Shown one piece after another: positions 26,761 through 48,769 of a DNA stretch of 64,000 nucleotides. Position numbers and translations under genes: made by a program. Source of the DNA: Candidatus Latescibacterota bacterium (lineage in GTDB: Bacteria; Latescibacterota; UBA2968; UBA8231); assembly GCA_965217585.1 (NCBI GenBank), contig OZ244561.1:7104001-7168000 (forward strand), written 5' to 3'. The notes beneath the pieces are model-generated. The model was not told the DNA's origin, did no database searches, and worked only from the letters and a program-made list of their open reading frames with translations. Each line of letters starts with the position of its first letter. Position 1 is the first letter of the stretch.

Positions 26761-27969
26761 ATGATAATTGATCTACAGACCTTGCGGGACGCGGTTGGCG
26801 GAACGGCGGCAGCATTTCGGTGTGTGACCGACTATCAGCCGACGGGAGGCCGTGGTGATAAGGTTTTTCCGCCAACCTATGAAGGCGGCAAATACGCCAC
26901 AGAGGAGCGCGTTGATCCCGCTACTGGCGAGGTTCGGCAGTGCATTCTCTTGGATTCAGTGCAGTCGCAGGCCAACCGGATGGAGTTGGCATTGCTGGAG
27001 GCACACTGCGCCGGAACGGTACAGCTTCCTCTGCTAGTAACGCGCTTCGATCAGGAGAAACTGCTCAAGAAGTTCTCGGTGACCAGCTTGGAGGCACCTC
27101 ATCGCATCGCGGATGCGTTGTTCCGCGACAGCCTGCTTGAAGGCACGATTTTCCGCAAATCAGAGAAAGGTCGAATACTCGACACTGCGGAGGTGAGGAA
27201 CGCCACCGGCCTATTTGGCTTGTGTCCGACCGCACTGATATTTGGGCTGTGGGACTCGACTGGACCGCGTGGAGGCTTGGGGTGCAAGTTTCAGCGGGCG
27301 GTAGTGTCGGAGATTATGGGATATGATGCGGTGGCAGGGGAGAAAACAGGAAGCCGCATCGATCCCGCTCAGATCATGCTTGGAGCGGGTCCGTTATACG
27401 AGCGCAAGTCTTCAGATGATGATGTACCTGATTGGACCTTGGATGAAAAAGCGGGATCTAAAAAGTTGGGGAAGGACAAGAAAGGAAGGCCATCGGAAGC
27501 CAATCACGGAAACGTCACGCCAACTATTACGGAAGGCGGATTCACCATCTCCAGTGCCCGGCAAACGACAACCTTGTCTCTGGCCGTCTTGCGCCGTCTC
27601 CGTTTTCCCCACAACGGTGCCGCTGATTCTAACCACGATACCGACCTCGCGGCACGCACCGCACTGGCCGCCTTGGGCCTCACCGCCGGTATTCTAGCGA
27701 GGATCGATACGGACCTTCGCTCTCGTTGCCAGCTTTTCGCTGAACAAGAACCTGTGTGGGAACTGCTCGACCGCCCAGGAGAACCTCCACGGAAATTTGA
27801 ACTTAGTCCCGAAGATGCGCTGAAACTGTTGGCAGCGGCCATTACCGAGGCGAAAAACGCGGGACTACCGTGGGAGGACGAAATTGAGTTGACCCCATCG
27901 CCCGAACTTGTCGAACTGGTTCGGCGTAGCCAGGAATTGGCCAGCACATCGGGAGAAGGGGAAGACTGA
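26761..27969 (+). CDS. csb1: Type I-G Cas7 (Csb1)
   Basis: 'GDKVFPPTY', 'LLDSVQSQANRME', 'LEAPHRIADA', 'PTALIFGLWDS', 'PSEANHGNV', 'LRSRC'. Confidence 0.93.
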   Translation: MIIDLQTLRDAVGGTAAAFRCVTDYQPTGGRGDKVFPPTYEGGKYATEERVDPATGEVRQCILLDSVQSQANRMELALLEAHCAGTVQLPLLVTRFDQEKLLKKFSVTSLEAPHRIADALFRDSLLEGTIFRKSEKGRILDTAEVRNATGLFGLCPTALIFGLWDSTGPRGGLGCKFQRAVVSEIMGYDAVAGEKTGSRIDPAQIMLGAGPLYERKSSDDDVPDWTLDEKAGSKKLGKDKKGRPSEANHGNVTPTITEGGFTISSARQTTTLSLAVLRRLRFPHNGAADSNHDTDLAARTALAALGLTAGILARIDTDLRSRCQLFAEQEPVWELLDRPGEPPRKFELSPEDALKLLAAAITEAKNAGLPWEDEIELTPSPELVELVRRSQELASTSGEGED

Positions 27970-30329
27970 TGTTCTCTCTTGGCATCCATTACCTGAATGG
28001 ATGGTCCATGGCAGCGGCGGACGGGGCGCGAAAAGAGCAGGCCGAATGGCCACCGCATCCCGATCGGGTGTTCATGGCGTTGGCGGCAGCTTGGTTCGAG
28101 ACCGGCGAAGATCCCGCCGAAGGCGAGGCCCTGCGCTGGCTTGAAGCCTTGCCACCCCCTGCGATTGCCGCCTCGGATGCGGACAGTCGCGTCACTGTTG
28201 TTAGCTATGTGCCCGTCAACGACGCGAACCTTAGTAGCAAGGTGCCTACTAGCGGAGACTTGAACAAACTAAAGAATGCCGGACTGGCCCAGCTTCCAGA
28301 GCATAGATCGCGCCAACCCCGTGGTTTCCCAGTTGCCATCCCCCATGATCCGACGGTACATCTAATTTGGCCGGATGCCGAATTGGGCGTACATCGCGTC
28401 GCCTTAGAACGGCTGGCCGCCAAAGTTACTCATGTGGGTCATTCGGCCTCCTTTGTGCAAATGTGGCTGGAAGCCAAGCCGCCGCCGCCCGCGTGGATTC
28501 CGACGTTTGGCGTCGCCCGTCAGCGACTGCGCGTAGCGAGCCCTGGGCGCTTGAAGGTGTTGGAAACGCGCATGAACCGCGCCGCATGGATCGCCTACCA
28601 CGATCTTCGCAGCGAGATTGAGCAAGCTGAGGCGGACCTCAAGGCGATGAAGCAACCGCCAAGGGTGCCTTGGAAGGCATTCGCGGATGTGGTGCTACTG
28701 GCCAGTGAATCTGCGGTCAAGCAGCATCCAGATTATCCCGGTGCCAAGACGGGTGACATCGTGGTCGCGACGAAACTAGTCAACAGCTTGGTTGACGAAG
28801 CGGGGATCGCCGCGATGCGGGAACTGATCGCCGAGGTTAGTGAAAGCGGCGATCCTGTACTAGTCAGCGCACATGCCTACGAACGCCAAAGCGTCAATGC
28901 CATTCCGATTGCCTTGGCGAAGTTGCTGAGCGAGCGACTCGGGATCCAGTTCGAGACTAATATCGTGCAGACCAATGTCGTTTCCCACACGGGTGCGGAC
29001 GGTTATGGCCGCCTTGCCCGCCAAGCTCGCTTTGAAGGCGGCGTTGATAAGGGCCGCGAATACGTGATGGTTGATGATTTCGTCGGTCAGGGCGGTACGT
29101 TGGCGAATCTGCGTGGCTGGATCCAAAAACAGGGCGGCAAGGTCGTCGGTGCCGTTGTGCTGACCGGCAAGCCGTACTCCGCTAAATTAAATCCTTCACA
29201 GGAGCAACTGCATGAACTCCGACAAAAACACGGATCAGACTTCGAGAGATGGTGGAAGGAACACTTCGGACACCCCTTCTCTTGCCTCACTCAATCAGAA
29301 GCTCGGTACCTCGCCCGCTCCCCGGATGTTGACACCATCCGAAATCGTCTTGCTGCGGCAAAGCAAGAAGGAAATGGCCCAAGTTGCACACGAAGTCCTC
29401 GCGAGCAAAGACAATACATAAAGGAAATGAAAGCGCGTTTGGAAGACTGTTTCCCCGATGGGAAGAAACCCGTGAGTCTGCCTCCGGTGCCGGGCCGTTG
29501 GCAGGGATACGATAGACCCCCGAAAGACAAGGCCCCCGAAGCTCCCGGCTCGGTTTTCGACCCTCAGCTCATTGTCCTCGGCATCAAAGGCAAGCGCGTG
29601 TCCTTGCCGGCGACGCTCAAGCTCACGGCGGCCCTGCGCAGCTTATTGATGAAAGAGTGTCCCGAACAACCGCCGCCCGAGTGGTTCAGTGGACATCGCT
29701 TGGACGGTACGCCCACCGCCGAACCGCATCTGGCTTTGACTCCGCTCCCCTTCGTCGGCGCAGAACATGCAGATGGTCGCATTATGGGTTTGGCTCTGGT
29801 TCTGCCGACGGGTTTGGATCAGCAGGAGGAGGCCGGGCATTGTCTCGAACCGTTCCTGCGCGACATAGCTACCGGATTGCCGCGTGAACATCCTTTGTTC
29901 GATGGCCAGTGGTTCGAGTGCGCTATTGAACTGGAAACCCGCGAACGCCCGCCGAAAAACCTTGACCCGGATACTTGGACACGGGAATCGCGCATTTGGG
30001 CGAGTGTGACCCCGGTGGTCCTGAACCGACATTTCGATGGTAAGGACAAGTGGGAGCGGGCGGCTGAGAGCGTGAAAGATGCATGTCTGCACATTGGTCT
30101 GCCGCGCCCACGCGAGGTGTTGCTGCACCCGGTTTCGCTGGTTGAGGGCGTCCCCCATGCGAGGGAGTATCCGCAACTGATGCGTAAGAACGGTGGGCGA
30201 CGGAGCCATAATCACGCGGTGATCGTCTTTGATGAGCCGGTGCGCGGGCCGGTGCTCGTGGGGGCAGGTCGCTTCCGGGGATATGGGTTGTGCCGCCCGA
30301 TGGATGGAAAAGGTGAAGATCGTGACTGA
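27969..30329 (+). CDS. csb2: Type I-G Csb2 (Cas5/Cas6-like) with an inserted phosphoribosyltransferase domain
   Basis: 'AEWPPHPDRVFMALAAA', 'YVPVND', 'THVGHSASFV', 'FSGH', 'WASVTPVVL', 'GPVLVGAGRFRGYGLC'; insert at about aa 230-470 with 'YVMVDDFVGQGGTL'. Confidence 0.9.
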   Translation: MFSLGIHYLNGWSMAAADGARKEQAEWPPHPDRVFMALAAAWFETGEDPAEGEALRWLEALPPPAIAASDADSRVTVVSYVPVNDANLSSKVPTSGDLNKLKNAGLAQLPEHRSRQPRGFPVAIPHDPTVHLIWPDAELGVHRVALERLAAKVTHVGHSASFVQMWLEAKPPPPAWIPTFGVARQRLRVASPGRLKVLETRMNRAAWIAYHDLRSEIEQAEADLKAMKQPPRVPWKAFADVVLLASESAVKQHPDYPGAKTGDIVVATKLVNSLVDEAGIAAMRELIAEVSESGDPVLVSAHAYERQSVNAIPIALAKLLSERLGIQFETNIVQTNVVSHTGADGYGRLARQARFEGGVDKGREYVMVDDFVGQGGTLANLRGWIQKQGGKVVGAVVLTGKPYSAKLNPSQEQLHELRQKHGSDFERWWKEHFGHPFSCLTQSEARYLARSPDVDTIRNRLAAAKQEGNGPSCTRSPREQRQYIKEMKARLEDCFPDGKKPVSLPPVPGRWQGYDRPPKDKAPEAPGSVFDPQLIVLGIKGKRVSLPATLKLTAALRSLLMKECPEQPPPEWFSGHRLDGTPTAEPHLALTPLPFVGAEHADGRIMGLALVLPTGLDQQEEAGHCLEPFLRDIATGLPREHPLFDGQWFECAIELETRERPPKNLDPDTWTRESRIWASVTPVVLNRHFDGKDKWERAAESVKDACLHIGLPRPREVLLHPVSLVEGVPHAREYPQLMRKNGGRRSHNHAVIVFDEPVRGPVLVGAGRFRGYGLCRPMDGKGEDRD
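29212..29421 (+). CDS. Overlapping (+1 frame) small ORF inside csb2, 'MLTPxEI' family
   Basis: AGGAG 7 nt before the ATG; homologous to 25940-26143 with the same stop position. Confidence 0.55.
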   Translation: MNSDKNTDQTSRDGGRNTSDTPSLASLNQKLGTSPAPRMLTPSEIVLLRQSKKEMAQVAHEVLASKDNT

Positions 30330-33282
30330 GTTGAACGACGCTACGGACTTCGCTGAGTTTTTCAACGAGTTGTGGGGCCATAAGCCTTTTGCTTGGCAGC
30401 AGGAATTGGCGGATAGAGTGCTGAAGCGGGCAGAGGCTCCTTGGCCCGAAGCCATTGCCTTGCCGACAGCAGCAGGCAAGACCGCGTCCTTGGATATCGC
30501 CGTGTTCGCGTTGGCAGCCCAAGCATCTCGGTTGGCTCGGAAGCAAGCCATCACTGCACCGCGTCGCATCTTCTTCGTGGTGGACCGGCGCGTGATAGTG
30601 GACCAAGCATATGAGCGGGCACGCCTGTTAGCAGACCATCTTGAGAAAGCGCAGGACGGCGTTATCAAGCGCGTTGCGGACAACCTGCGCCAGATTGCTC
30701 ACGGCGAGGCGGACGGGTTTGAGAAGGCACGGCCGTTGGCCGCTTATGTATTGCGCGGTGGCATGTATCGGTCGGAGGCTTGGATGAATAGCCCGCTTCA
30801 ACCCATGGTGGTGGCCTCGACCGTCGATCAAATCGGCTCTCGCTTGTTATTTCGCGGCTATGGACGCGGCCATCGCACGTGGCCGATAGCTGCGGGATTG
30901 GTCGCCAACGACAGCCTAATCCTACTCGACGAGGCGCAGTGCGCCCAGCCGTTCTTACAAACCCTGCAAGCGGTGCGGCGCTATCAAAAATGGGGGCATA
31001 CGCCGCTTGAACGTCCCTTTTACCCGGTGGTGATGTCGGCGACCCCGCCGTCGGGGGTGGACCTATTCGAGGACCTATCCGCCGAAAGCCGCAATCCTGA
31101 CCATACGCTAGGTAAGCGCCAACTAGCACAAAAGCCCGCCATCCTGAAGACAGTCGGAAAAGCCAAGGGAAAGCGGGCTACGAGTGTGCTGGCTAGGGCT
31201 TTGGCCGATGCTGCATCGGAGCTGGTCAACGACGAATGCCGCGCTATCGTGGTGTTCGTCAACCGCGTTGCCACGGCGAGGGAGACTTATTGCTTGCTCC
31301 ACAGTCGGGAAGACATTGACGCTGTACTGCTAACAGGTCGGATGCGCCCCGTTGACAAAGAGGTCGTCGTACAACGCTTAAAACCCCTCCGGTCGAGCCA
31401 ATCCGCAGAACGCACTTTGGAAAAGCCGATGATCGTCGTGGCTACCCAAACTCTGGAAGTGGGGGCCGATCTCGACTTTGACGGCTTGGTGACCGAGTGC
31501 GCGAGTCTCGATGCCTTGCGCCAGCGCTTTGGTCGATTGAATCGCATGGGGCGGAAGATTGATGCGCGAGCAGAGATTCTCGTACGCGGCGACCAAACAG
31601 GCGACAAAGGGGACGACCCCGTGTACGGCGAGGCCCTTACTAAGACTTGGGCTTGGCTCAACGAGTGCCAAGACGAAAACGGCGAGGTCGATTTCGGGAT
31701 TGCCCATCTTGAAGAGAAATTGCCAAAGGGCGATTCCCTGACTGCACTCAACGCACCTTCCGTCAATGCCCCGGTGATGCTTCCTGCCCATGTTGATTGC
31801 TGGGCACAGACAGCACCGCAACCACAACCTTCTCCTGATGTGGCTCCGTTTCTGCATGGTCCTCGTGAAGGCGCGGCGGATGTGCAGGTCTGCTGGCGTG
31901 CTGATGTGGATTTGACCCGTGAAAAGGAGACGTTGGAACTTCTGTCCTTGTGCCCGCCGAGCAGCAGTGAGACGCTCCCGGTGCCGGTCGGTGTGTTCAA
32001 GCGTTGGTTAGCCGGAGAGGACGCCGCAGACGACAGTGCCGATGTAGAAGGAATCGGTGCAGAGGATGGCATTAGCGGGAACAGTTCGTCCAAGGTGGAA
32101 CGTCAGATAATCCGATGGCGAGGGGTGGCCGAAACGGAATCCGAACACATCACAGCGGACCCTAGGACGATTCGTCCCGGCGATGTTATTGTGATCCCAG
32201 CTAACCATCCGGGGCTAGCGCGTCAACTCGGAGACCTGCCGCCGGACGCCGACTTGGATGTGGGAGATCGCGCCTATCGGCTCGCCCGCGCTAAGCCCAT
32301 CCTTCGCTTGCACCCGAAGTTAGTGGACGATTGGCCGGATTCCGTTACGGCTAAAGGTCCCGCAGACGAACTGCTAAAGGATCTGGAGCAGAAGTACGAC
32401 GACGATCCGCATGAGGTCGGCAATGCCTTGAGGGAGCTTCTACAGGAACTGGCCGCCTCTGAATCGCTCCCAGAACACTGGTCTTGGTTGCCGAAAGCGG
32501 CAAAAGAATTGAGCAAGGAATACTCCGGCTCCAAGCTGGCCCGTGCCTATCGCGCTGTCGGCGGCAAAAGTATCGTCCTCGTCGGGCGGCAGCGCATACC
32601 GGAACTCACCCTCGAAGCCGACCACTTCAGCGATGAGGACGACGCTAGCGCGTCTGGGATCGGGCGTCCCGTCAAATTGTTAAGTCACCTGCCCGGCGTC
32701 GAAGCGTTTGCCCGCCGTCATGCCTCGGGCTGCGGCTTGCCAGCGGACTTGGTCGAAGTTCTCGCCTGCGCTGGCCTGTTGCATGACTTGGGCAAGGCCG
32801 ATCCTCGATTTCAGTCGTTATTGCGTGGTGGCACTCGCTGGTTGGGCGGGGAACTTCTCGCCAAGTCTGCCGAAATGCCGAGAAGTCCGGCAGCCTATGA
32901 GAAGGCTCGGACCGCTTCCGGCTATCCGAAAGGTGGGCGGCACGAACTGCTTTCGGTGCGCTTGGCAGAAAGCGCGTCGATTCTTTTGCCGGAAAGGGAC
33001 GATCTGCGAGACTTGGTTCTGCATTTGATTGCCAGCCATCACGGCCACGGTCGGCCGTTCGCGCCGGTGGTGTGTGACGAGCAGGGCGAGGATGTAGATT
33101 TCGAGTTGCGCGGCCAACGGACGCACTGGTCTGGTCCCACCGGCCTTGAGCGTCTCGACTCCGGCGTCGCGGATCGCTATTGGCGGCTGGTGCGGCGCTA
33201 TGGCTGGTGGGGTTTGGCTTGGCTGGAATCTCTGCTGCGACTTGCTGATTGGCGGCAGAGCGAACAGGAGGAGACACAATGA
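30322..33282 (+). CDS. cas3: Type I-G Cas3 (helicase with C-terminal HD nuclease)
   Basis: 'LPTAAGKT', 'VVDRRVIVDQ', 'LLDEAQ', 'MSAT', 'QRFGRLNR', then HD 'LLHDLGKAD', 'RHELLS', 'SHHGHGRP', 'LRLAD'. GTG start overlapping the csb2 stop (ATG 30304 is an alternative). Confidence 0.93.
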   Translation: MTELNDATDFAEFFNELWGHKPFAWQQELADRVLKRAEAPWPEAIALPTAAGKTASLDIAVFALAAQASRLARKQAITAPRRIFFVVDRRVIVDQAYERARLLADHLEKAQDGVIKRVADNLRQIAHGEADGFEKARPLAAYVLRGGMYRSEAWMNSPLQPMVVASTVDQIGSRLLFRGYGRGHRTWPIAAGLVANDSLILLDEAQCAQPFLQTLQAVRRYQKWGHTPLERPFYPVVMSATPPSGVDLFEDLSAESRNPDHTLGKRQLAQKPAILKTVGKAKGKRATSVLARALADAASELVNDECRAIVVFVNRVATARETYCLLHSREDIDAVLLTGRMRPVDKEVVVQRLKPLRSSQSAERTLEKPMIVVATQTLEVGADLDFDGLVTECASLDALRQRFGRLNRMGRKIDARAEILVRGDQTGDKGDDPVYGEALTKTWAWLNECQDENGEVDFGIAHLEEKLPKGDSLTALNAPSVNAPVMLPAHVDCWAQTAPQPQPSPDVAPFLHGPREGAADVQVCWRADVDLTREKETLELLSLCPPSSSETLPVPVGVFKRWLAGEDAADDSADVEGIGAEDGISGNSSSKVERQIIRWRGVAETESEHITADPRTIRPGDVIVIPANHPGLARQLGDLPPDADLDVGDRAYRLARAKPILRLHPKLVDDWPDSVTAKGPADELLKDLEQKYDDDPHEVGNALRELLQELAASESLPEHWSWLPKAAKELSKEYSGSKLARAYRAVGGKSIVLVGRQRIPELTLEADHFSDEDDASASGIGRPVKLLSHLPGVEAFARRHASGCGLPADLVEVLACAGLLHDLGKADPRFQSLLRGGTRWLGGELLAKSAEMPRSPAAYEKARTASGYPKGGRHELLSVRLAESASILLPERDDLRDLVLHLIASHHGHGRPFAPVVCDEQGEDVDFELRGQRTHWSGPTGLERLDSGVADRYWRLVRRYGWWGLAWLESLLRLADWRQSEQEETQ

Positions 33283-34208
33283 CCGCAAATGAATCAACTC
33301 CGGGGCTTTTGCTGAACGGACTTGACGGCAGCAATCCGCTCGGATTTCTCGCGGCCATTGGCACTGCGGTTGTCCTGCAAGATGTATTCCCAGAAATACG
33401 CCTTGGCTGGGAACAAATAGAGGGCGGTTGGAGGCCATCCTTGGCAGGTTGTGGCGACGATGAGCAGGAATTTGCGGAAAAACTCTCAGAAGCTCTAAAA
33501 GACGCACCCATGACTGTCTTTGATGTTGACAACAAGATGCCTTTTGACACCGAGAAATTTTCTCGCAAACTGCGAGATGTTCAGTGCTGTTCGTCTATTG
33601 CCGATCGTCGAGATGCCGATTTTCTGTCCAGCTTTGGAACCGAACTATATCCCGATGAGAAAAACGGACAGTTCCAAGATTCAAGGTTCAGGATGGTACG
33701 TAGCGGAGATAGTGCGGGACAAGGATTGCCGTTCTATGCCAAGGAAATGCGAAAAAAGGTCAGCATAGATCACATTCAACGCACTTTGTTTCACGCTTGG
33801 GATTACCAAGACACAGGGTATAGCCTGCGTTGGGACCCTATTGAAGATCAGCGGTATGCTCTGCGTTGGCGCGATCCGAGCAAGTCAAGCCAAGACACCA
33901 TGTTGGCGGCCAATAGCTTGGCGGTTGAGGCATTACAGTGGTTTCCGGTGGTAATGCCCGTTGGGAACCAAGCGCAAACTACGGGATTTCAGCGACTCAG
34001 GCGGCGCGAGACCTATTTCGTCTGGCCGATTTGGACCCCGATGGTGGGCATAGAAACTGTGCGTTCTCTGCTGGCCTTGGACGATCTTTGCAAAGAACCC
34101 GTACCCCGTTCATCCCTTGTCAAGAGAGGTATTGAGGAAGTTTATCGCAGTCAGCGCATCCAGCAAAGCCAGTACTACAGCAACTTCCTTGTTGCTGTCC
34201 CAGCGTGA
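33279..34208 (+). CDS. csb3: Type I-G short large-subunit (Csb3/Cas8u2-type)
   Basis: 'LNGLDGSNPLGFLAAIG', 'LRWDP', 'ANSLAVEAL', 'FVWPIW'; ATGA overlap with cas3; gene order csb1-csb2-cas3-csb3. Confidence 0.8.
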   Translation: MTANESTPGLLLNGLDGSNPLGFLAAIGTAVVLQDVFPEIRLGWEQIEGGWRPSLAGCGDDEQEFAEKLSEALKDAPMTVFDVDNKMPFDTEKFSRKLRDVQCCSSIADRRDADFLSSFGTELYPDEKNGQFQDSRFRMVRSGDSAGQGLPFYAKEMRKKVSIDHIQRTLFHAWDYQDTGYSLRWDPIEDQRYALRWRDPSKSSQDTMLAANSLAVEALQWFPVVMPVGNQAQTTGFQRLRRRETYFVWPIWTPMVGIETVRSLLALDDLCKEPVPRSSLVKRGIEEVYRSQRIQQSQYYSNFLVAVPA

Positions 34209-34387
34209 AACGCTTCGTGAACCAAGCCTCGGTTAGGAGCCGATGCTGATCTTCAGAGCAAGGCAATTAACTTGGGTATAGAAGTTCTCTGACAGATGAA
34301 ATTTGAAATTATTCCATAGCGTAGTAGGTTTACGGCGCATGTTGAACTCTTGTCATCGCCGTGCATTCCGATTGGATACCGCAATCT

Positions 34388-35857
34388 ATGAGCAAAGCAG
34401 TCTATTTGGCTGGTGATTTTTCTGGAATCCAGCGTTATGTGCTGGGTGTGAAGAGCGCGGGCAAAGCACAGGCGAAGCGCTTGCGAGCCCGGTCTTTCCT
34501 GCTCGAACTCTTTGAACATGCCGCACTTTGGACGGTAAAGGAACGTTTGCGTATTGCTGACGATGATGTCCTAGTCCGGGGTGGGGGTGGTTTCCTGATA
34601 AGGATTCCACCTGATACCGATCCCGTTCGCCTTGAGGAGATTCGTTCCGGCTTGCAACGCAAGCTGTGGGATGAATCCGGCGGAGAAGTCCAGTTCTCGT
34701 TGGGCTGGGCTGAGACGCCACTCGCCGCCCGCGCTCATCTGGAACTTCAGAAGCGCCGTATAGGAGCTTTCATGCTGCAAAGCAGCGGCGGTTGGAACCC
34801 GGCGGGTTGGAGCCAACCTTCACTTGACAAGCCGTGTGAAGTCTGCCGCCAATCTCCAGGACAGCAGAGCGTGCAGGATGAAGGTGAGGAAGTCCTACAT
34901 TGTAGAAGCTGTCTGGAGGCCCGCAAACTCGGTGAAAAGCTGACTCGGTGGAAATGGATGCGCCCAGGTGGCGGCTCAGTGCAAGCGCTGGGCGTTGGCT
35001 TCGAGCACGTGAACGATCAGGAGTCTGAGGCTTTTCGCGTGGGCCGCTGGATACCGCGTCATTCCGATTCCCGCGAACCGCTGACATTCCAAGAAATCGC
35101 AGAGCAAGCCCGTAGCGACCGTCGTTTGGCTGTGTTGAAAGCCGATGTGGACGACATGGGCGTCCGGGTCGGACAAATTGCCGGAGAAGACCAGTCGTAT
35201 AACCGGCTGCGGTCTTTCAGTTACAGTCTGCACGAGTTCTTCGGGCAGACAATTCAGGAATTGTTGGCAAAGTCATGGCCTTTGATCTATACGCTGTATG
35301 CCGGCGGGGACGATCTGCTGCTAGTTGGCCCTTGGGACGTTGTGCTCGACTTTGCGGGGTCTCTGGTAAGAAAGTTTGAGACGGGTCCGGCCCAAGAGTA
35401 TTCACCGCTAACCTTAAGTGCTGGAATCGCTCTAACCCCTTACCGCGTACCGATCCGTCACGCAGTCGAGCGTGCGGAGGAACTCTTGGAGTCGGCTAAG
35501 CAACGTCCGGGCAAGAATCGGTGCGCCGCCCTCGGGGCGGATTGGAGTTGGAAGCAACACGAATCTGTAGTAGGCGATGGCAAGCGGCTGGCGGACTGGG
35601 TTGGGGATGGAGTGGCTCCTCGCTCCCTACTACATCGTTTGCTGCGTCTCGCGGAGAGCAGCAAGCCTGTGCGAGTGGCTCGCTGGGCTTATCAAATCGA
35701 GCGCAACGTGCATCGACGCCACACCGACTTTCGTCGCTGGGCAAACCGTGTGATCGAATATCTAGGGCGCGACGAACAGCGCACAAACGAATTGGCGGCA
35801 AGTCTCCGCTATGCCTTGTTGGCAACACGACCGCGAAAGGAAGGACGCGATGAGTAG
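34388..35857 (+). CDS. cas10: Compact Cas10/Csm1 lacking the HD domain
   Basis: Begins at Palm1 'GDFSGIQRY...KRLRARSF'; Zn finger CEVC/CRSC; 'LKADVDDMG'; intact 'YAGGDDLLLVG'; 'LSAGI'. Confidence 0.9.
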   Translation: MSKAVYLAGDFSGIQRYVLGVKSAGKAQAKRLRARSFLLELFEHAALWTVKERLRIADDDVLVRGGGGFLIRIPPDTDPVRLEEIRSGLQRKLWDESGGEVQFSLGWAETPLAARAHLELQKRRIGAFMLQSSGGWNPAGWSQPSLDKPCEVCRQSPGQQSVQDEGEEVLHCRSCLEARKLGEKLTRWKWMRPGGGSVQALGVGFEHVNDQESEAFRVGRWIPRHSDSREPLTFQEIAEQARSDRRLAVLKADVDDMGVRVGQIAGEDQSYNRLRSFSYSLHEFFGQTIQELLAKSWPLIYTLYAGGDDLLLVGPWDVVLDFAGSLVRKFETGPAQEYSPLTLSAGIALTPYRVPIRHAVERAEELLESAKQRPGKNRCAALGADWSWKQHESVVGDGKRLADWVGDGVAPRSLLHRLLRLAESSKPVRVARWAYQIERNVHRRHTDFRRWANRVIEYLGRDEQRTNELAASLRYALLATRPRKEGRDE

Positions 35858-36380
35858 CATGGAGGATGCTATGAAAAAGGCGGGATTCAAACCGGAACGA
35901 CAACAGCGGCGAGATCTCGGCGGCGATAATCGTAACAGACCGCAAAGGGAAGCACTTCCGGAATTCCCAAGTTCGTACTTTGAAGTCGATCCACAAAGCC
36001 GAAAATACCTTCAACCTATATTCGTCGCCAAACAATCTGTCGATCGTTTGGCGAGGATATTGGGGAAGGAATCCAGACCGAAACTCACTACCGGCCAGAT
36101 GCGCCGCTTCTTCAATCACTGCCGCGAGATTGAACGTCAATTGAAAGTTGACGGCAGAAGCTGGCATCAAGTATCTGCCCGCTTCGAGGGACTCTGTTAC
36201 CAAGCTCAGTACGCAAAATCGGCGGGTAAGATACCCAAGGAATTTCAAGATTTCATCGATGACAACGTGAAACGGGTAGGCTCCGCGAAAGAGCCGGAAA
36301 GGGCCTTTCTGGACGGCTTTCTACCCCATTTCGAGGCATTGGTTGGCTTTGGGGCCGCTTATATGAGGGAGGTTTCCTGA
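35850..36380 (+). CDS. csm2: Type III-A small subunit Csm2 (Cas11)
   Basis: 'LTTGQMRRFF', 'FLDGFLPHFEALVGF'; position between cas10 and csm3. Confidence 0.85.
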   Translation: MSSMEDAMKKAGFKPERQQRRDLGGDNRNRPQREALPEFPSSYFEVDPQSRKYLQPIFVAKQSVDRLARILGKESRPKLTTGQMRRFFNHCREIERQLKVDGRSWHQVSARFEGLCYQAQYAKSAGKIPKEFQDFIDDNVKRVGSAKEPERAFLDGFLPHFEALVGFGAAYMREVS

Positions 36381-36381
36381 C

Positions 36382-37053
36382 ATGCAAAGAACCGCTATTC
36401 ACACCATTACCTTTACCGCTCGCTGCGAAAGCGGTCTTCATATTGGAGGTTCGCAAGACGAGTTGGCAATTGGTGGGTCCGACAATCCGGTGATCAAGAA
36501 TCCAGAAACTCGTCAGCCCTATATCCCCGGTTCCTCGCTGAAGGGAAAGATGCGAGGCGAATTGGAGAAGCAATTGGGCCGATTCAGCGGTCGGGATAAT
36601 GATCGTCCGTGCAGTTGTGCAAAGGATGAATGCCCCGTTTGTCGGATATTTGGAGCGCACATGAACACCAGAAGCAATCTCGGCCCTTCCCGTATCATCG
36701 TCCGCGACGGTAGGCCCCTCACGGGTGTTCGCATCGAGAACAAAACGGAAAATGTCATAAATCGCCAAACTGGCGCGGCTCAACATCCGCGCTCAAACGA
36801 GCGGGTCGTTGAGGGAACAGAGTTTGGGATGCAGATCGTTCTACAAGTCTTCGATCTTGATAGAGATTTCTCGTACACGGACACCAACGGTGGCTCGCAT
36901 CGAGGCGACGAAGCCCTCCAAGCGGTCGTCGCTGATGGCTTGAATCTGGTGCAGATGACGGGTCTGGGCGGTGGGACAAGCCGGGGTTCAGGCGCGGTGA
37001 GTTTCGACGATTTCAAATTGGACGGCAATACATGGACCCATTGGTCCGTCTGA
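36382..37053 (+). CDS. csm3: Type III-A Csm3 (Cas7)
   Basis: 'SGLHIGG', catalytic Asp in 'IGGSDNPV', 'PYIPGSSLKGKMR', 'CRIFG', 'KTENVINR', 'LGGGTSRGSG'. Confidence 0.92.
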   Translation: MQRTAIHTITFTARCESGLHIGGSQDELAIGGSDNPVIKNPETRQPYIPGSSLKGKMRGELEKQLGRFSGRDNDRPCSCAKDECPVCRIFGAHMNTRSNLGPSRIIVRDGRPLTGVRIENKTENVINRQTGAAQHPRSNERVVEGTEFGMQIVLQVFDLDRDFSYTDTNGGSHRGDEALQAVVADGLNLVQMTGLGGGTSRGSGAVSFDDFKLDGNTWTHWSV

Positions 37054-37982
37054 GGCTGAAGCCTCTCGGGGTTTGGACCACGCCTTGGCAGGCGGATTCG
37101 CTGCTTGGCGCGATGGCGTGTGCATGGGCGCGTTCTCGGGGGCAGGATGCGCTCCAGCGGGACTTTTTGGAGCCGTGGCTCGCCCACGAGCCGCTGTTTG
37201 TCATCTCCGATGCTTTTCCTGGCGATTCTTTGCCAGCACCGGCGGGCCTGCCGTTATGGTGGGACTGGCCTTCGGAAGAACGCAAAACCGTCAAGAAATG
37301 TCGCTGGATGACTACGACCGACTTTCGTCGAGTCCAAGAGGGGAAAAAACCCAATCTAGAAGATCCCGGTATCTCTATCCGCGATCGCGTGCGGCTGCGC
37401 AATACCATCTCCCGCGTTTCCAATACCACGGGTGCTGGTGGTGAACTCTTTGAAGTGCCGTTTTCAAATCTCAGCAAGTCCGACGGCAGCCTGACCATTT
37501 TTGCTCGCGCTGCCGACGGTGGCTTGCAGATTTTGCTGGAGGCCTTGGAAATGCTGGGGCGGACCGGGTATGGTGCCGATGCCTCGGTGGGCCACGGCGG
37601 TTTTGAGCTAGACGGCGATCCAACTTCCTGTCCCGAACTGGATAATGTTCTTGGGGCTGACGGGTTCACATCCCTCTCAACGTTCCAGCCAGCGGCTACT
37701 GACCCAGTGGAAGGTTTCTGGCGACTCTTCGTCAAGTACGGAAAACTGGCCCCAGAGTTCCACTCTAGCGCCGTGTTCAAACGTCCACAGGTCATGCTGG
37801 CGGCCGGTGCCTGCTTCCGCACGAAACACCCTCCAAAACCTTTCTACGGTGCTCCGATTGGGCCGGAGCGCTTGCTTAGCAAAAGTGCCCGTGAATCGCT
37901 TGCCGCACGGGGCATTCACCCGGTTCAAGCGGCTTTCGCGCTCGCTGTTCCCATGATCTGGCTAAAGGGAACAGACGGGTGA
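37032..37982 (+). CDS. csm4: Type III-A Csm4 (Cas5)
   Basis: 'ADSLLGAMA', 'VISDAFP', 'RNTISR', 'GYGADASVGHGGF', 'FKRP...GACF'. Confidence 0.85.
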   Translation: MDPLVRLRLKPLGVWTTPWQADSLLGAMACAWARSRGQDALQRDFLEPWLAHEPLFVISDAFPGDSLPAPAGLPLWWDWPSEERKTVKKCRWMTTTDFRRVQEGKKPNLEDPGISIRDRVRLRNTISRVSNTTGAGGELFEVPFSNLSKSDGSLTIFARAADGGLQILLEALEMLGRTGYGADASVGHGGFELDGDPTSCPELDNVLGADGFTSLSTFQPAATDPVEGFWRLFVKYGKLAPEFHSSAVFKRPQVMLAAGACFRTKHPPKPFYGAPIGPERLLSKSARESLAARGIHPVQAAFALAVPMIWLKGTDG

Positions 37983-38009
37983 GCTTACAGTTAAAGGATT
38001 GACGCTTAT

Positions 38010-39083
38010 ATGGCACACCTACTCATCACCACTGTTGGCACGTCTCTGCTAACCAACCGCGATGACCGTCCATGGGCAGGATGGAATGGGCGGGCTGGCG
38101 ACCCGTTGCCAGACGTAGTGGACGTAGATCAGTGGCTGGATCAGGCAGAGGTGGTCACAGCTAGCGCCGAAACTAATACCTTGTACGCCATTGGCGTCCA
38201 TGACTCAGATCATATCCTCTTCCTCCACTCCGACACACCAGAAGGGCGCTTTTGTTCAGAGCGGCTGCAACATTTCTACGCCAAGCGTTGCCGTCAAGTT
38301 TACGGTCGTTCGCTAACTGCCTTGGGGTACTCCCACGCTAGCTTCTCGCAAAAAGGGTTGAAAGTCTTGGTCGAAGAAGCCATCAAAGCCGTGCGTGAAG
38401 CGCGTAAAAAATCTCTTCAACCCGTATTTTGTGCCACAGGTGGGTTCAAGGCCGAAATCGCTTTTCTCAACTTATTGGGTGCCTTGTTAGAGGTCGAAGT
38501 GTACTACATCCACGAGCAATTTAGAGAGATTGTTCGCCTGCCTCGCTTGCCATTGAATTGGGATATGCAATGGGTTATAGAACGCCAGGATTTTTTTCAG
38601 TGGATTGATGACGAGCCACGTCCAAGCGCAGAGGTGGAGAACCGATTAAAGGCGCGCCCAGAACTTCGGCCGCTCATCGAAGATGATGCGGATGGAAACT
38701 CGTACCTCAATGCGGCGGGCGACTTGCTGTTTCGCGTTGCCAAGGAACGGTTGAGCCTTGAACCTCGTGCGACTTGGCCCGATGTGGTGGCGAGACCGCC
38801 GCAAGAAAAAGATCACCTTTCTGATGTGGAGCATCACCGTCCGAAAGGTTGGAAGAATTTCGTCTCTCGCCTTTGTGCGATTGATTGCGTAAGCCGAGTC
38901 TCTTATGATACGGCCGCCTTTGGCGGCGAAGTGGTCAAGGTGCTCGACGGTGCCAACGGCGTCATTGCGGTGCGATATGGTAAGGGCGACAAGGAGTTAC
39001 CCTTACGCATTGAGACATCTGCTCGTGGGACAGAGCAAACGGAGTTGGTTGAAGAATACATTGCACGGTGTCTTCGGAACTGA
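38010..39083 (+). CDS. APE2256/Crn1-like CARF protein with wHTH-like region and an extra C-terminal domain
   Basis: 'ITTVGTSLL', 'SAETN', 'HSDTPEG', 'ATGGFKAE', 'YYIHE...LP'; C-terminal about 100 aa with 'EHHRP...IETSARG'. Confidence 0.82.
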   Translation: MAHLLITTVGTSLLTNRDDRPWAGWNGRAGDPLPDVVDVDQWLDQAEVVTASAETNTLYAIGVHDSDHILFLHSDTPEGRFCSERLQHFYAKRCRQVYGRSLTALGYSHASFSQKGLKVLVEEAIKAVREARKKSLQPVFCATGGFKAEIAFLNLLGALLEVEVYYIHEQFREIVRLPRLPLNWDMQWVIERQDFFQWIDDEPRPSAEVENRLKARPELRPLIEDDADGNSYLNAAGDLLFRVAKERLSLEPRATWPDVVARPPQEKDHLSDVEHHRPKGWKNFVSRLCAIDCVSRVSYDTAAFGGEVVKVLDGANGVIAVRYGKGDKELPLRIETSARGTEQTELVEEYIARCLRN

Positions 39084-39179: not shown

Positions 39180-40892
39180 ATGCCTCACGACTCCCAACTC
39201 ACCCTACCTCTACCCCCGCCGCCAGTCGATGAGAATACGCCGCTGGTCCCGGCCCGCATGGTCAACGAATGGGTTTATTGCCCGCGGCTGGCCTATTTGG
39301 AATGGGTGGAAGGCGAGTGGGCTGAGAGCGGAGACACGGCTGAGGGGCGGCGCGCTCATGGGCGAGTTGATGAAGGTGGGGGTCGCTTGCCTGCGCCCGA
39401 CGAACTCGGCGAGGAGATGACCCGCGCCCGGGCCGTTACCCTTGCCTCGGAGCGGCTCGGCGTTATCGCCAAGATGGATGTCGTGGAGGCCGACGAGGGT
39501 ATCGCAATGCCGGTGGACTTCAAGAAAGGGAAGCGGCCCCACGTCGCCGCCGGAGCCTACGAGCCTGAGCGCGTCCAAATCTGCACCCAAGCCATGATCC
39601 TCGAAGACAATGGCTATAAGGTCGAGCAGGGGGTGCTTTGGTACGCTGGCTCACGCGAGCGGGTGCAGGTCGTTATCGACGACGAACTCCGCGCCCAGAC
39701 TTTGGAGGCGATTGCCGGCCTGCGATGGGCAGCGGCCAGTGGTCGTCGGCCACCGCCGCTTGAAAATAGCCCCAAGTGCCCGCGCTGTTCGCTGGCTGGC
39801 ATCTGCCTGCCGGATGAGACCAATCTGTTCCGCAAGGGGTATCCGCCGCGCCCGCTGAACCCGTCCGACGATCCGGCGCTGCCGCTCTACGTGCAAACGC
39901 CGGGGGCGCGGCTGCGCAAAAGCGGCGAGCGCTTGGTGGTGGAGACCAAAGAAGAGACCGTGGAAGTGCCCCTGATTGACGTTTCCCAAGTCGATCTGTT
40001 CGGCCCGGTCTCGGTGACTACGCCGGCTCTACACGCGCTGATGAACGCCGAGATTCCAGTGTCGTGGTTTTCTACGGGCGGCTGGTTCCTCGGCCACACC
40101 GTGGGGACTGGCAATGGCAATGTGGCCGTGCGCCAAGCCCAGTACCAAGCTGCTTTTGACGAGCCTCGCCGCCTCGCCTTTGCGCGCGACTTGGTGGCGG
40201 CTAAGGTGCGTAATGCGCGGACGATGCTGCGGCGCAACTGGCGTGTCAGTGGAGACGCGGAGGCGAAAAGCGACGTCTTGGTGCGATTACAGCGCATTGT
40301 CCAGCGGGTGCCCCGCGCTAAAGACGACCGTCAATTGCTCGGCATTGAGGGCGAGGCCGCGGCGATCTATTTCGCCTGTTTTGAGAACATGCTCACCGAG
40401 GGTGGGAAAGAGGATGTGCCCGCGTTCGCTTTTGCAAAGCGCAATCGGCGTCCGCCCACCGATCCGGTGAATGCCATGCTCTCGCTGGCTTATGCCTTGT
40501 TGACGCGGGTTTTCACGACCGCGATCTCGGCGACCGGCTTGGACCCTTACATGGGCCTCTACCATCGCCCGCGTCATGGTCGCCCGGCGCTGGCCCTCGA
40601 TTTGATGGAGCCATTTCGGCCTATTGTCGCGGACTCCTGCGTACTTCAGGCTATCAATAACGGCGAGGTCAAACCGGGGGATTTCGTATTCAACGGCCCG
40701 GCGTGTTCGCTAAAGACTAATGGGCGCAAGGCGTTTATCGCCGCGTTTGAGCGTCGTCTGGAGCAGGAAACCACGCATCCGCTTTTTGGCTATCGCGTCT
40801 CTATGCGGCGGCTGATTGAGGTGCAGGCTCGGTTGTTTGCCCGGCATTTGCAGGGCGAAATTGTCCCCTATCCGCATTATCTGCCCCGGTAG
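39180..40892 (+). CDS. cas1: Cas4-Cas1 fusion
   Basis: 'WVYCPRL', 'DFKKG', 'KCPRCSLAGICLP' (Cas4); 'GIEGEAAAIYF', 'NRRPPTDPVNAMLS', 'LALDLMEPFR' (Cas1). Confidence 0.95.
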   Translation: MPHDSQLTLPLPPPPVDENTPLVPARMVNEWVYCPRLAYLEWVEGEWAESGDTAEGRRAHGRVDEGGGRLPAPDELGEEMTRARAVTLASERLGVIAKMDVVEADEGIAMPVDFKKGKRPHVAAGAYEPERVQICTQAMILEDNGYKVEQGVLWYAGSRERVQVVIDDELRAQTLEAIAGLRWAAASGRRPPPLENSPKCPRCSLAGICLPDETNLFRKGYPPRPLNPSDDPALPLYVQTPGARLRKSGERLVVETKEETVEVPLIDVSQVDLFGPVSVTTPALHALMNAEIPVSWFSTGGWFLGHTVGTGNGNVAVRQAQYQAAFDEPRRLAFARDLVAAKVRNARTMLRRNWRVSGDAEAKSDVLVRLQRIVQRVPRAKDDRQLLGIEGEAAAIYFACFENMLTEGGKEDVPAFAFAKRNRRPPTDPVNAMLSLAYALLTRVFTTAISATGLDPYMGLYHRPRHGRPALALDLMEPFRPIVADSCVLQAINNGEVKPGDFVFNGPACSLKTNGRKAFIAAFERRLEQETTHPLFGYRVSMRRLIEVQARLFARHLQGEIVPYPHYLPR

Positions 40893-40897
40893 CGAAT

Positions 40898-41191
40898 ATG
40901 GCCAACGAGCGTCTCTACATCGTTGCTTATGACATTGCCGAGCCGAAGCGTTGGCGGCGCGTGTTCAAGGTGATGAAAGGCTATGGACACTGGTTGCAGT
41001 TATCGATTTTCCAGTGTCGGCTGACGGCCCGGCGACGGGCTGAGATGACGGCGCGGTTGGAAGGTTTGATCAAATTGGCAGAGGATCACATTCTGATTTT
41101 GGATTTGGGGCCTGCTGACCAAGTTGATCCTCTGGTAGAAAGTCTGGGCAAGACGTATGAAGCGCCGAGTCGGCAGGCGACAATTGTTTAG
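40898..41191 (+). CDS. cas2: Cas2
   Basis: 'YIVAYDIAEPKRWRRV', 'LQLSIFQC'. Confidence 0.95.
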   Translation: MANERLYIVAYDIAEPKRWRRVFKVMKGYGHWLQLSIFQCRLTARRRAEMTARLEGLIKLAEDHILILDLGPADQVDPLVESLGKTYEAPSRQATIV

Positions 41192-41400: not shown

Positions 41401-44400
41401 AATTTCCGGGGTGGAAACGCCCCGGCCTCATTGAAGCTACCACTTGAGTATTTGTGACAAGTTCCTCTTTATTAGCAATTTCCGGGGTGGAAACGCCCCG
41501 GCCTCATTGAAGCTCGTTCCACGGCATCATGTTCACCTTCTCGATCAACAATTTCCGGGGTGGAAACGCCCCGGCCTCATTGAAGCACGAATACGCCGAG
41601 ATGGAGTTCTTTTCTGAGGGCCAATTTCCGGGGTGGAAACGCCCCGGCCTCATTGAAGCTCGAGTTGAGGAAAAATATTTTTCTTAAATTTTTGTTAATT
41701 TCCGGGGTGGAAACGCCCCGGCCTCATTGAAGCTTGATGCTTTTGACGAGCGCCAACCCGCCCCGCGATAGCGGGAAATTTCCGGGGTGGAAACGCCCCG
41801 GCCTCATTGAAGCATCGCGTAAGCTGTCGAGAGGGGAACCTGCCCGCCGAAATTTCCGGGGTGGAAACGCCCCGGCCTCATTGAAGCGCGCAAGGTCGCG
41901 TCTTTGCTCCGCGGCGCTGGCGTAATTTCCGGGGTGGAAACGCCCCGGCCTCATTGAAGCGACATGCGCACGGATGCGGCCTCGGGTCATCGAAAGCAAT
42001 TTCCGGGGTGGAAACGCCCCGGCCTCATTGAAGCAGAAAAGGCCGATAAGTCTCGGAGCATAGCTGTCGAAAGAAATTTCCGGGGTGGAAACGCCCCGGC
42101 CTCATTGAAGCGAGGTCGTATGGTTTGACCTGCCTACACCTACGGGCCAATTTCCGGGGTGGAAACGCCCCGGCCTCATTGAAGCCCGGATGGCCCACCA
42201 TTGAAGGCGGCGAATCGTGAAAATTTCCGGGGTGGAAACGCCCCGGCCTCATTGAAGCATTTCTAAGCTCCTTTAAATAAAAATCTAATATAATAATTTC
42301 CGGGGTGGAAACGCCCCGGCCTCATTGAAGCCCTCTGCAGAAGAATTCGCTGCAAAAAACTGAATACAATTTCCGGGGTGGAAACGCCCCGGCCTCATTG
42401 AAGCTCTTGCTGGTTTTGTTGCAGGTTCCTTACGGTCGCCGAATTTCCGGGGTGGAAACGCCCCGGCCTCATTGAAGCCGATATGCTTCTATATACATTT
42501 TTTGCCTTAGACAAAATTTCCGGGGTGGAAACGCCCCGGCCTCATTGAAGCAGGCAAAGCACCCCTATACTCACCCTCACGACAGGAAATTTCCGGGGTG
42601 GAAACGCCCCGGCCTCATTGAAGCCACCTATACCAGACTCTCTATGTATGCGCCCCGGCTGCAATTTCCGGGGTGGAAACGCCCCGGCCTCATTGAAGCC
42701 TTTCATGATTTATCCTTTCACATTTAGCTACTGAAATTTCCGGGGTGGAAACGCCCCGGCCTCATTGAAGCTCTTGGATGTTGGGGTAAGTTTCCTTACC
42801 GACGCTATAATTTCCGGGGTGGAAACGCCCCGGCCTCATTGAAGCGCTCCTTCTTGAATGAGTTGGATAGTTGATGCAGGCGCAATTTCCGGGGTGGAAA
42901 CGCCCCGGCCTCATTGAAGCGAGTGAGGATCGAGACATCCCCACAGGTCTCGGCACAATTTCCGGGGTGGAAACGCCCCGGCCTCATTGAAGCTCTCGCT
43001 CACAACGCGCAAAAGCTCACCGCAGCCGACAATTTCCGGGGTGGAAACGCCCCGGCCTCATTGAAGCTCCGATAGCAAGCTGTTTCTGTTGGGCAATCCG
43101 CAAGAATTTCCGGGGTGGAAACGCCCCGGCCTCATTGAAGCTAGCTATTGCAGGCTCCGCAAAATCCGTTCTCGGTAATTTCCGGGGTGGAAACGCCCCG
43201 GCCTCATTGAAGCACCGCTTGGGGCAATACCTATGGTCGTATGGGCCGCAATTTCCGGGGTGGAAACGCCCCCGCCTCATTGAAGCTTCGGCAACGCGAA
43301 CATCAGCGCCAAAGCCTCCGCAAATTTCCGGGGTGGAAACGCCCCGGCCTCATTGAAGCGATCGACTGCTTGCGCGACTCAAAATCGTTGATGACAATTT
43401 CCGGGGTGGAAACGCCCCGGCCTCATTGAAGCTCTTCAGCAGACCTTCAAAAAACCTTCAAATGAGAATAATTTCCGGGGTGGAAACGCCCCGGCCTCAT
43501 TGAAGCTTGGCCTCATGGGAAACAAGATACAGAAAGTTGCTCAATTTCCGGGGTGGAAACGCCCCGGCCTCATTGAAGCTTCTAGGCGGGCGGTGGAAAG
43601 GGGGATCTTCTGCATCAATTTCCGGGGTGGAAACGCCCCGGCCTCATTGAAGCTTCTTGTGAGAGGCCCTGCAGCCGGAACGAGTCGGCAATTTCCGGGG
43701 TGGAAACGCCCCGGCCTCATTGAAGCTTCTTATCGGCTAAATCCTCTTAGTCTAGGTTTGGCCCAATTTCCGGGGTGGAAACGCCCCGGCCTCATTGAAG
43801 CTACCAATTAGCGATTTAGAATTGATGCAGGAGAAAGACAATTTCCGGGGTGGAAACGCCCCGGCCTCATTGAAGCGTGCGGAGGGCGTTGACGTGCCAC
43901 GGCGATAGAAATAATTTCCGGGGTGGAAACGCCCCGGCCTCATTGAAGCACCGCTTATGGAGAGTAAAAGTTGCAGGGGGGTACGAATTTCCGGGGTGGA
44001 AACGCCCCGGCCTCATTGAAGCTGAGCCTCCCCGGTCGATTGTATCAGCATCTTCCCCAAATTTCCGGGGTGGAAACGCCCCGGCCTCATTGAAGCAATC
44101 ACACTGGGACGCTGCAAAGCCAATTTGACACGGCCAATTTCCGGGGTGGAAACGCCCCGGCCTCATTGAAGCATGGCAGCCACCGCGCTTTCGAGGATCT
44201 CCAAGGGGTAATTTCCGGGGTGGAAACGCCCCGGCCTCATTGAAGCTTGTATTCGACGAAGTGCTCGGAGTTGGCACCCGAAGGGGGCGCGAATTTCCGG
44301 GGTGGAAACGCCCCGGCCTCATTGAAGCTTGTGGTTGATGACGAACCCCTGGTTCTCTATCTCGCAATTTCCGGGGTGGAAACGCCCCGGCCTCATTGAA

Positions 44401-48004: not shown

Positions 48005-48074
48005 GCTCCAATCGAGTTGGGTGATTGTATCGCTTCTGAGAAGAGATTATCTTAAGTTAAACTTGAAAGGGGGC

Positions 48075-48730: not shown

Positions 48731-48769
48731 GCGCAGCAGGTTTTGACAAGCCGTGTGAAGTCTGTCGCC

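Follow-up and report, generated by a model that had tools for sequence, protein, structure and literature searches.

The subject of this analysis is a five-gene cassette, cas10-csm2-csm3-csm4 followed by a gene for a CARF protein, in a 64,000-nucleotide (nt) stretch of DNA from a Candidatus Latescibacterota bacterium (contig OZ244561.1, positions 7,104,001-7,168,000), which is called the window here and to whose numbering the coordinates below refer. The cassette (34388-39083) is nested between the interference genes of a type I-G CRISPR system and its cas4-cas1g and cas2 genes and array, a placement given in the initial annotation of the window and confirmed by NCBIfam, Pfam and PADLOC. The products of the cassette are best read as a Csm complex that would signal through cyclic oligoadenylate (cOA) and be guided by CRISPR RNA (crRNA) cut by Csb2 from the I-G array, a reading drawn from sequence and given a probability of roughly two in three. 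It keeps the core of what was proposed initially, namely signalling by a Cas10 without an HD domain that borrows Csb2-cut crRNA from a shared array, and is supported by the recurrence of the cassette in I-G loci, the CARF gene, the genomes in which this Cas10 stands alone (six of ten), two genomes with only half of Csb2, and the geometry of the repeat. The original wording, signalling-only, was too strong, since the presumed catalytic aspartate of Csm3 is intact and cleavage of the target RNA by the Csm complex is also expected.

The Cas10 (Csm1) protein, at 489 residues, begins with its Palm1 domain, as first described. Over residues 5-108 and 232-482 it can be aligned with Thermococcus onnurineus Csm1 (6kbd), at residues 234-336 and 501-772 of the latter; because the alignment opens at residue 234, the HD domain, which forms the first ~230 residues, is absent and the region between the Palm domains is shortened. 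Nor is there space for such a domain upstream, as had also been claimed: the ATG at 34388 is preceded in its own frame by a TGA (34343-34345), and only 153 nt lie between the csb3 stop (34208) and the first possible cas10 start. The alternative start is a GTG at 34361, with the same stop (35857). The GGDD motif (G306-D309), D253 and D255, the four zinc-finger cysteines and a GIQ motif are invariant in all 19 family members compared. D34 of Csm3 (in GGSDNPVI), which we take to be the catalytic aspartate, is invariant in 15 of 15, so that both sites are as intact as the initial annotation held them to be. Csm3 also retains its CxC...CxxC knuckle, and the Csm subunits of the window align to solved Csm structures. 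The best 64 of 150 listed protein representatives of Cas10 are all of 580 residues or fewer, and HD-bearing Csm1 proteins (~780-810 residues) first appear among those listed at 33-34% identity and lower.

As to subtype, a Palm-domain Cas10/Csm1 and the Csm2, Csm3 and Csm4 subunits of type III-A are all present, and Csm5, the HD domain and a Cas6 and array of its own are missing. The Cas5 protein scores as Csm4 and not as Csx10, and the Csx10 and Csx19 signature of type III-D is not found in the cassette. The combination of inactivated cyclase and active HD domain that marks types III-F, III-G and III-H is not found either, GGDD and D253/D255 being intact and the HD domain absent. By these marks the module is classed as a derivative of type III-A.

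The cassette is widespread. A scan for related loci, reduced to one genome per species, returned 28 loci in which Cas10 is 51-90% identical to that of the window over its whole length, and these span about ten phyla: the hosts belong to the Latescibacterota, Verrucomicrobiota, Rhodothermota, Acidobacteriota, Binatota, Chloroflexota, Spirochaetota, Thermodesulfobacteriota and Gemmatimonadota, together with one metagenome-assembled genome labelled Enterobacteriaceae. Wherever a locus extends to csm4 (26 loci; two contigs stop within csm3), the order cas10-csm2-csm3-csm4 is kept, and a CARF gene comes next in 25 of the 26, the remaining locus (L026) not having been examined. Upstream lie I-G interference genes in 17 of the 28 loci, only the Cas6-like half of Csb2 in two, I-E genes in one (L031) and no cas genes in five, whilst the flank is too short to judge in three. 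The 17 I-G loci include all three large-subunit variants (Cas8g1/Csx17, Cas8g2 and the Cas3-extension), and in 11 loci cas10 is immediately preceded by csb2 or its C-terminal half.

Cassette, adaptation genes and array together behave like a stable unit. Three other Latescibacterota loci have a repeat that is identical to that of the window (L008 and L009) or one base off (L020), with cas4-cas1g and cas2 92-95% and Cas10 88-90% identical; they carry a Cas8g1-type I-G effector, and their Csb2 is only ~20% identical to that of the window. Decay of Cas8g1/Csx17 in L008 and L009 was considered and rejected, as tblastn found a whole gene in L008 and, in L009, a gene broken by a single frame change. 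A Cas10 phylogeny, suggested as a check in the initial annotation, is available as a quick tree only; its clades track host phylum and the I-G variant label is unclustered on it (8 changes against a mean of 7.6 for shuffled labels, at least 5 being forced). In the locus L031 (3400-20500) the cassette has diverged, with 53% identity in Cas10, and contains csm2 as three and csm3 as two paralogues. It comes immediately after a module of type I-E (Cse1, Cas7e, Cas5e, Cas6e and Cas1e) and adjoins I-E-type repeats, which suggests the same idea adapted to a different type I partner.

Such conservation makes it very improbable that the cassette is an inactive, decaying type III-A remnant from which the HD domain, Csm5, Cas6 and array have been lost. 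Several canonical III-A parts are certainly missing, and damage is seen in three of the 28 copies (an interruption in L026, a csm3 split in two in L030, and truncation of both cas10 and csm3 in L035), but the reading frames of the window are intact, the ratio of nonsynonymous to synonymous substitution rates (dN/dS) is 0.07-0.39 for every cassette gene when the window is compared with four relatives, the catalytic motifs are invariant, and Cas10 and the gene order are maintained across about ten phyla. A weak hint in the same direction comes from metatranscriptomes, where contigs 90-95% similar to stretches of the locus occur in three runs belonging to two studies. One such contig, of 3.1 kb, covers the end of cas10, csm2, csm3 and csm4 and is divergent beyond, and hence comes from a relative; contigs from RNA libraries are no proof of transcription.

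The source of the guide RNA is indicated first by the array. Of the copies of its 36-nt repeat, 89 of 92 have the identical end CCTCATTGAAGC, spacers are mostly of 36-39 nt, and the leader is placed on the cas2 side because the last repeats of the array are degenerate. When folded, the repeat forms a stem of 8 bp, after which comes a 12-nt tail that can be divided into 4 and 8 nt. As described in the accessible part of PMC9638904, the Csb2 of Thioalkalivibrio cleaves 4 nt beyond the hairpin and leaves an 8-nt handle; the geometry of the window repeat agrees with such a cut and thereby supports processing by Csb2 to give the handle AUUGAAGC. Arrays of I-G type adjoin 16 of the related loci, with the handle ATTGAAGC in 11 of the 16 and a one-base difference in four; in the remaining array, that of L017, the repeat was not read to its end. 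Spacer matches elsewhere in the genome are chance matches of 17-18 nt only, and there is therefore no clue to self-targeting. Two spacers are each present twice within 41402-48004, and a 765-bp insertion (48005-48769) sits between two repeats and splits the array. Its reading frames give a weak, sub-cut-off match to a Phd/YefM-like antitoxin (48075-48326) and a match to a PIN-domain protein (48323-48730; PF01850, 4.4e-10), and together look like a VapBC-type pair.

A second indication is the distribution of Cas10 and Cas6 in ten other cassette-bearing genomes. The short Cas10 is the only Palm2 match in six of these. The Cas6 model TIGR01877 gave sub-cut-off matches in three of the ten and nothing in the other seven, and PF10040 gave none in the five genomes tested. 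Four genomes (G003, G004, G005 and G008) have neither a second Cas10 nor a Cas6 match. G004, a 2.9-Mb chromosome, and G011 are both Dehalococcoidia, and these two are especially informative. No Cas3g reaches the cut-off in them (best scores of 100 and 67 bits against 400), and Csb1 gave no match in a search that had no positive control genome. Their sole Csb2 match is a protein of 284-287 residues that corresponds to the Cas6-like C-terminal half, 52-58% identical to that half of full-length Dehalococcoidia Csb2; its gene abuts cas10 on the upstream side, and an I-G-type array follows. A half-Csb2 beside cas10 points to the processing enzyme, and suggests how type III systems can acquire type I parts. 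Taken together, the Cas10 and Cas6 distribution, the half-Csb2 genomes and the repeat geometry make Csb2-processed I-G crRNA the most likely guide.

The fifth gene of the cassette was overlooked in the initial annotation, according to which only csm2, csm3 and csm4 follow cas10, and yet it is this gene that makes signalling meaningful. Its 357-residue product is a full-length member of the CARF7--CARF_DUF2103 family (PDLC01931; residues 4-354 against positions 3-338 of the 340 in the profile), a family with 598 matches, of which most of the best 120 listed are ~355 residues long. It consists of a CARF domain, a winged helix-turn-helix (wHTH) like those of Cami1 and SSO1393, and a C-terminal domain (residues 245-357). 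An AlphaFold (AF2) model (mean predicted local distance difference test, pLDDT, 86.8) superimposes over residues 3-252 on Cami1, with 240 residues aligned (Z 23.6, root-mean-square deviation 2.8), and also on the SSO1393 protein (Z 19.6), Csa3 being lower in the match list. The CARF and wHTH parts are thus common to the window protein, the CARF-RelE effector Cami1 (8phb/8phj) and the CARF7 ring nucleases SSO1393 and Sis0811. The C-terminal domain may differ: the match to the Cami1 sequence profile covers residues 46-244 only (E 1.5e-24), the region beyond does not align to RelE by sequence, no RelE row occurs among the structural matches listed for this domain modelled alone, and PADLOC does not class the protein as CARF_RelE. 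Modelled alone (pLDDT 89.5), the C-terminal region forms a small alpha/beta domain, in which the motifs EK, EHHRPxGW and TTARG contain near-invariant polar residues (K, H, R and TT) that look like an active site, and it belongs to a large family without a matched fold or known activity.

The CARF protein also bears on a second alternative, that the module is mainly regulatory, with the CARF-wHTH protein responding to cOA in the role of transcription factor or ring nuclease so as to tune the I-G operon, adaptation or other genes. The protein may indeed be a regulator or ring nuclease and not a toxic effector: its N-terminal 250 residues match CARF-wHTH proteins, its gene lies directly upstream of cas4-cas1g, and no nuclease fold is recognisable in the C-terminal domain, for which a search of solved folds with residues 245-357 gave a best Z of 4.5, Foldseek a best E of 0.37 and the Atlas nothing. 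A mainly regulatory role is unlikely nevertheless. Of the 25 CARF genes that follow csm4 in the related loci, 19 match TIGR02710 (CARF-HEPN, Csx1-type by PADLOC), two TIGR02619 and one TIGR02221, and three are window-like by tblastn; as a CARF-HEPN RNase fills the slot in 19 of 22 tested relatives, the position after csm4 is normally an effector slot. The best structural match, Cami1, is an effector according to the title of 8phb/8phj, and the near-invariant polar residues resemble an active site. Relatives of the window CARF protein were found in 80 metagenome loci, only four of which have window-like csm genes nearby, and the gene is for this reason seen as a portable accessory that is not specific to the cassette.

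The preferred reading, a cOA-signalling Csm complex with Csb2-cut I-G guides, can be set out as a series of steps. The array would be transcribed from the leader on the cas2 side, to judge from the decay of the terminal repeats. The Cas6-like C-terminal domain of Csb2 would cut each repeat 4 nt past the 8-bp hairpin, as the repeat geometry and the published Csb2 suggest, and the resulting single pool of crRNA would load both the I-G Cascade and the Csm1-4 complex. On pairing of the Csm complex with a complementary transcript, the Palm domains of Cas10 would be expected from their conserved motifs to make cOA, most likely cyclic tetra-adenylate (cA4), and Csm3 to cut the bound RNA. The messenger would bind the CARF domain of the adjacent gene product and would probably be degraded by it as well, in the manner of characterised CARF7 relatives. 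The outcome would be an RNA-triggered back-up to DNA targeting, independent of a protospacer-adjacent motif (PAM) and served by one adaptation module and one array.

Several observations weigh against this reading, in addition to the unplaced fold of the CARF protein's C-terminal domain and the damaged copies described above, and the III-D handle and the role of Csm5 considered below. Five related loci have no cas genes upstream; in the three genomes of this group that were checked (G012-G014), full I-G loci lie elsewhere. The statements on Cas6 derive from the two models named, and the completeness of the genomes is not given. Cutting of crRNA by the window Csb2 is presumed by analogy with the Thioalkalivibrio enzyme, at least as the available portion of PMC9638904 presents it. 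The C-terminal Cas6-like half and its G-rich loop do align with other Csb2 proteins, but the catalytic histidine of the window protein is not assignable from the alignments, and the G-rich-loop histidine of the Cas8g1-type Csb2 is an arginine here.

The window Csb2 is also unusually long, with 786 residues compared with about 490-570 in most relatives, a form shared with L014 and L016. The insertions, at residues ~232-475, give a weak sub-cut-off match to phosphoribosyltransferases (PF00156, 9.6e-4). In the locus L019 (1689-9952) there are two csb2 genes that share about 21% identity and stem from different lineages of I-G; the second immediately precedes cas10, which looks as though the cassette had come with a csb2 of its own.

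A third alternative arises from the remainder of the host genome, a single 7.32-Mb contig with a second CRISPR locus at 1.960-1.977 Mb (C1, 1960000-1976600; loci L006 and L007), ~5 Mb from that of the window. It encodes a Cas6 (PF10040, 2.4e-21), a CARF(NE0113)-sigma54 AAA+ regulator, DUF1232 and EcsC-like proteins, a multi-Cas7 fused to a cold-shock domain (TIGR03986, 875 residues), a 363-residue protein that is unassigned, a second short Cas10 of 547 residues, Csx10, a Csx7-like protein, Csx19, Cas1 and Cas2, and has an array of ~1 kb with the repeat GTTTGGAATATTGACCCGATTACTAGGGGATTGAAAC; to judge by its genes this is a complete type III-D system. The statements in the initial annotation that a single repeat type and no Cas6 are present are accordingly right for the window and wrong for the genome. 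The cassette could be served in trans by this locus, its Cas6 making guides and Csm1-4 loading III-D crRNA instead of or besides I-G crRNA, for which the Cas6, the second array and the second short Cas10 provide the means. Moreover, the III-D repeat ends in the 8-nt handle ATTGAAAC, one base from the I-G handle ATTGAAGC, so that here the III-D array may supply crRNA to the complex as well.

Service by the III-D locus is quite unlikely as an explanation. The cassette is physically and syntenically tied to I-G genes in 17 of the 28 loci, six of the ten other genomes have no second Cas10, the III-D repeat is unstructured and bears little resemblance to its I-G counterpart, and the III-D locus is self-sufficient, with its own Csx10, Csx19, multi-Cas7, Cas1 and Cas2. 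A Cas6 and a separate type III array, which together with csm5 had initially been named as what would speak against shared guides if they served the module, do exist elsewhere in the genome; csm5 does not, and nothing shows that the III-D parts serve the cassette.

The claim that Csm5 is missing extends to the whole host genome, in which the Csm5 model (TIGR01899) has a single match of 14.5 bits, on the csm3 of the cassette itself, and no match above the cut-off was found in five other genomes, making six in all with the host. The available text of PMC5389561 describes Csm5 of Staphylococcus epidermidis as capping the crRNA at its 3' end and recruiting polynucleotide phosphorylase (PNPase); on deletion of csm5 maturation is abolished and untrimmed intermediates remain. 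As loss of csm5 blocks maturation there, a complex without Csm5 must work differently, and by analogy this family probably uses untrimmed, type I-like crRNA. It offers a natural test of what the 3' cap does. A bolder and rather doubtful proposal is a Cascade-like type III complex, in which Csb2 or its Cas6-like half, the form seen in the two Dehalococcoidia loci, would stay on the 3' hairpin of the untrimmed crRNA and take over from Csm5 the capping of the Csm3 filament; as a subunit common to both, Csb2 would then split one crRNA pool between two effectors, one targeting DNA and one sensing RNA, with I-G modules swapped around a stable cassette, adaptation genes and array.

Compared with canonical III-A Csm complexes (S. 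epidermidis, S. thermophilus and T. onnurineus), the cassette shares Palm1, the zinc finger, Palm2 with GGDD, the C-terminal domain of Cas10, Csm2, the Csm3 aspartate and Csm4, but it lacks the HD domain, Csm5, Cas6, cas1/cas2 and an array, and sits within an I-G operon. Loss of the HD domain is by itself common, as the accessible part of PMC11229360 gives it as absent from 35% of III-A and 97% of III-D Cas10 proteins; the same source groups hybrid loci under the type III subtype. [quoted passage not shown] The window is nevertheless their opposite, since it keeps the cyclase, has lost the HD domain and has a CARF effector, whereas in those types, as far as the accessible parts of PMC12669027 and PMC11229360 describe them, the cyclase is inactivated, the HD domain is active with predicted DNA cleavage, and CARF effectors are absent.

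Guide sharing between type I and type III systems is not new in itself. In Marinomonas mediterranea the I-F and III-B loci are reportedly separate and the III-B system complete; the type III genes of the window, by comparison, lie inside a type I operon, lack a processing enzyme and travel with the adaptation module. Use of I-F array guides by the III-B effector as a back-up against escape is reported for that bacterium in the available part of PMC5576922, and the accessible portion of the CRISPRCasTyper preprint recognises hybrid cas cassettes and shared arrays generally. The I-G system of Thioalkalivibrio sulfidiphilus has Csb1, Csb2, Cas3g, a repeat with a hairpin and a 4+8-nt tail, and an 8-nt handle in common with the window, going by the part of its description at hand. 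It keeps a III-B locus and array separate, and the window differs from it further in the Cas3-extension/Cas8g variant and the much longer Csb2. No published I-G-nested type III cassette or natural Csm system without Csm5 was found, and the supplements of classification and census papers may list such loci. Type III-A and type I/III guide sharing are kinds already known, and what appears to be new is this I-G-nested variant.

If the reading is correct, a single operon encodes two effectors that differ in mechanism and are supplied by the same adaptation module and array: PAM-dependent DNA degradation by Cascade-G and Cas3, and PAM-independent, transcription-dependent cOA signalling. Mutants that escape through changes in the PAM or seed would thereby meet a built-in response. 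The cassette would also be among the smallest cyclase-active type III effectors, with four subunits and a Cas10 of 489 residues, and its compactness and reliance on a Cas6-type nuclease that behaves well may make it of interest for RNA diagnostics based on type III systems. The type III loci with Csb2 alone and the possible 3' cap formed by Csb2 are the parts most worth experiment.

The 11 cas and CARF reading frames of the locus, all on the + strand, score above their own NCBIfam cut-offs, and Pfam and PADLOC concur (see the table). Cas3g (TIGR02621), Csb1 (TIGR02570), Csb2 (TIGR02165), the Cas8g variant (NF049934) and the Cas4-Cas1 fusion (NF049935) place the surrounding system in type I-G. 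In the cas3g frame the profile match runs from residue 40 on, and the true start may be downstream.

Features of the type I-G locus and its nested cassette, in window coordinates
Feature	Position	Strand	Evidence
csb1/cas7g, type I-G backbone subunit	26761-27969	+	TIGR02570 74.3 bits (cut-off 38); PF09617 1e-50
csb2, Cas5-Cas6 fusion, 786 residues, ~250-residue insertion, presumed crRNA endonuclease	27969-30329	+	TIGR02165 299 bits, two stretches
cas3g, helicase-HD nuclease	30229-33282	+	TIGR02621 749.9 bits (cut-off 400)
'csb3', I-G Cas3-extension/Cas8g-like subunit	33249-34208	+	NF049934 212.8 bits; PADLOC Cas8g 5e-79
cas10/csm1, 489 residues, Palm1, Zn finger, Palm2 (GGDD) and C-terminal domain	34388-35857	+	TIGR02578 265.8 bits (cut-off 170)
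csm2 (Cas11 small subunit), 189 residues	35811-36380	+	TIGR01870 41.8 bits (cut-off 30.6); PF03750
csm3 (Cas7), 223 residues	36382-37053	+	TIGR02582 163.4 bits (cut-off 90)
csm4 (Cas5), 316 residues	37032-37982	+	TIGR01903 83.2 bits (cut-off 55); PADLOC Csm4 2e-53
CARF7-family sensor-effector (putative), 357 residues	38010-39083	+	PF09651, TIGR02619; PADLOC CARF7--CARF_DUF2103 3.8e-137
cas4-cas1g fusion, adaptation	39180-40892	+	NF049935 777 bits (cut-off 560)
cas2	40898-41191	+	TIGR01573, PF09827
CRISPR array, 92 repeats of ATTTCCGGGGTGGAAACGCCCCGGCCTCATTGAAGC	41402-48880	+	repeat analysis

No cas genes were found elsewhere in the window, the remainder of which holds metabolic genes, and scans for promoters and terminators gave counts not above those of shuffled sequence. 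About 14 kb upstream of the CRISPR locus, at 11545-13056, is a gene for a 503-residue AAA_21/AAA_15 ATPase with matches to AbiEii/OLD-like ATPase families, which may be a defence gene. Closer to the locus, at 23791-25338, lies a gene for a 515-residue protein with AAA-ATPase_like and PDDEXK_9 domains (PF09820/PF08011) that is also present at nine other places in the genome, eight of them with full-length copies 72-82% identical. One copy of this gene thus precedes the I-G locus, the III-D locus has two at its flanks, and the related loci L008, L010, L014 and L034 are likewise flanked by copies.

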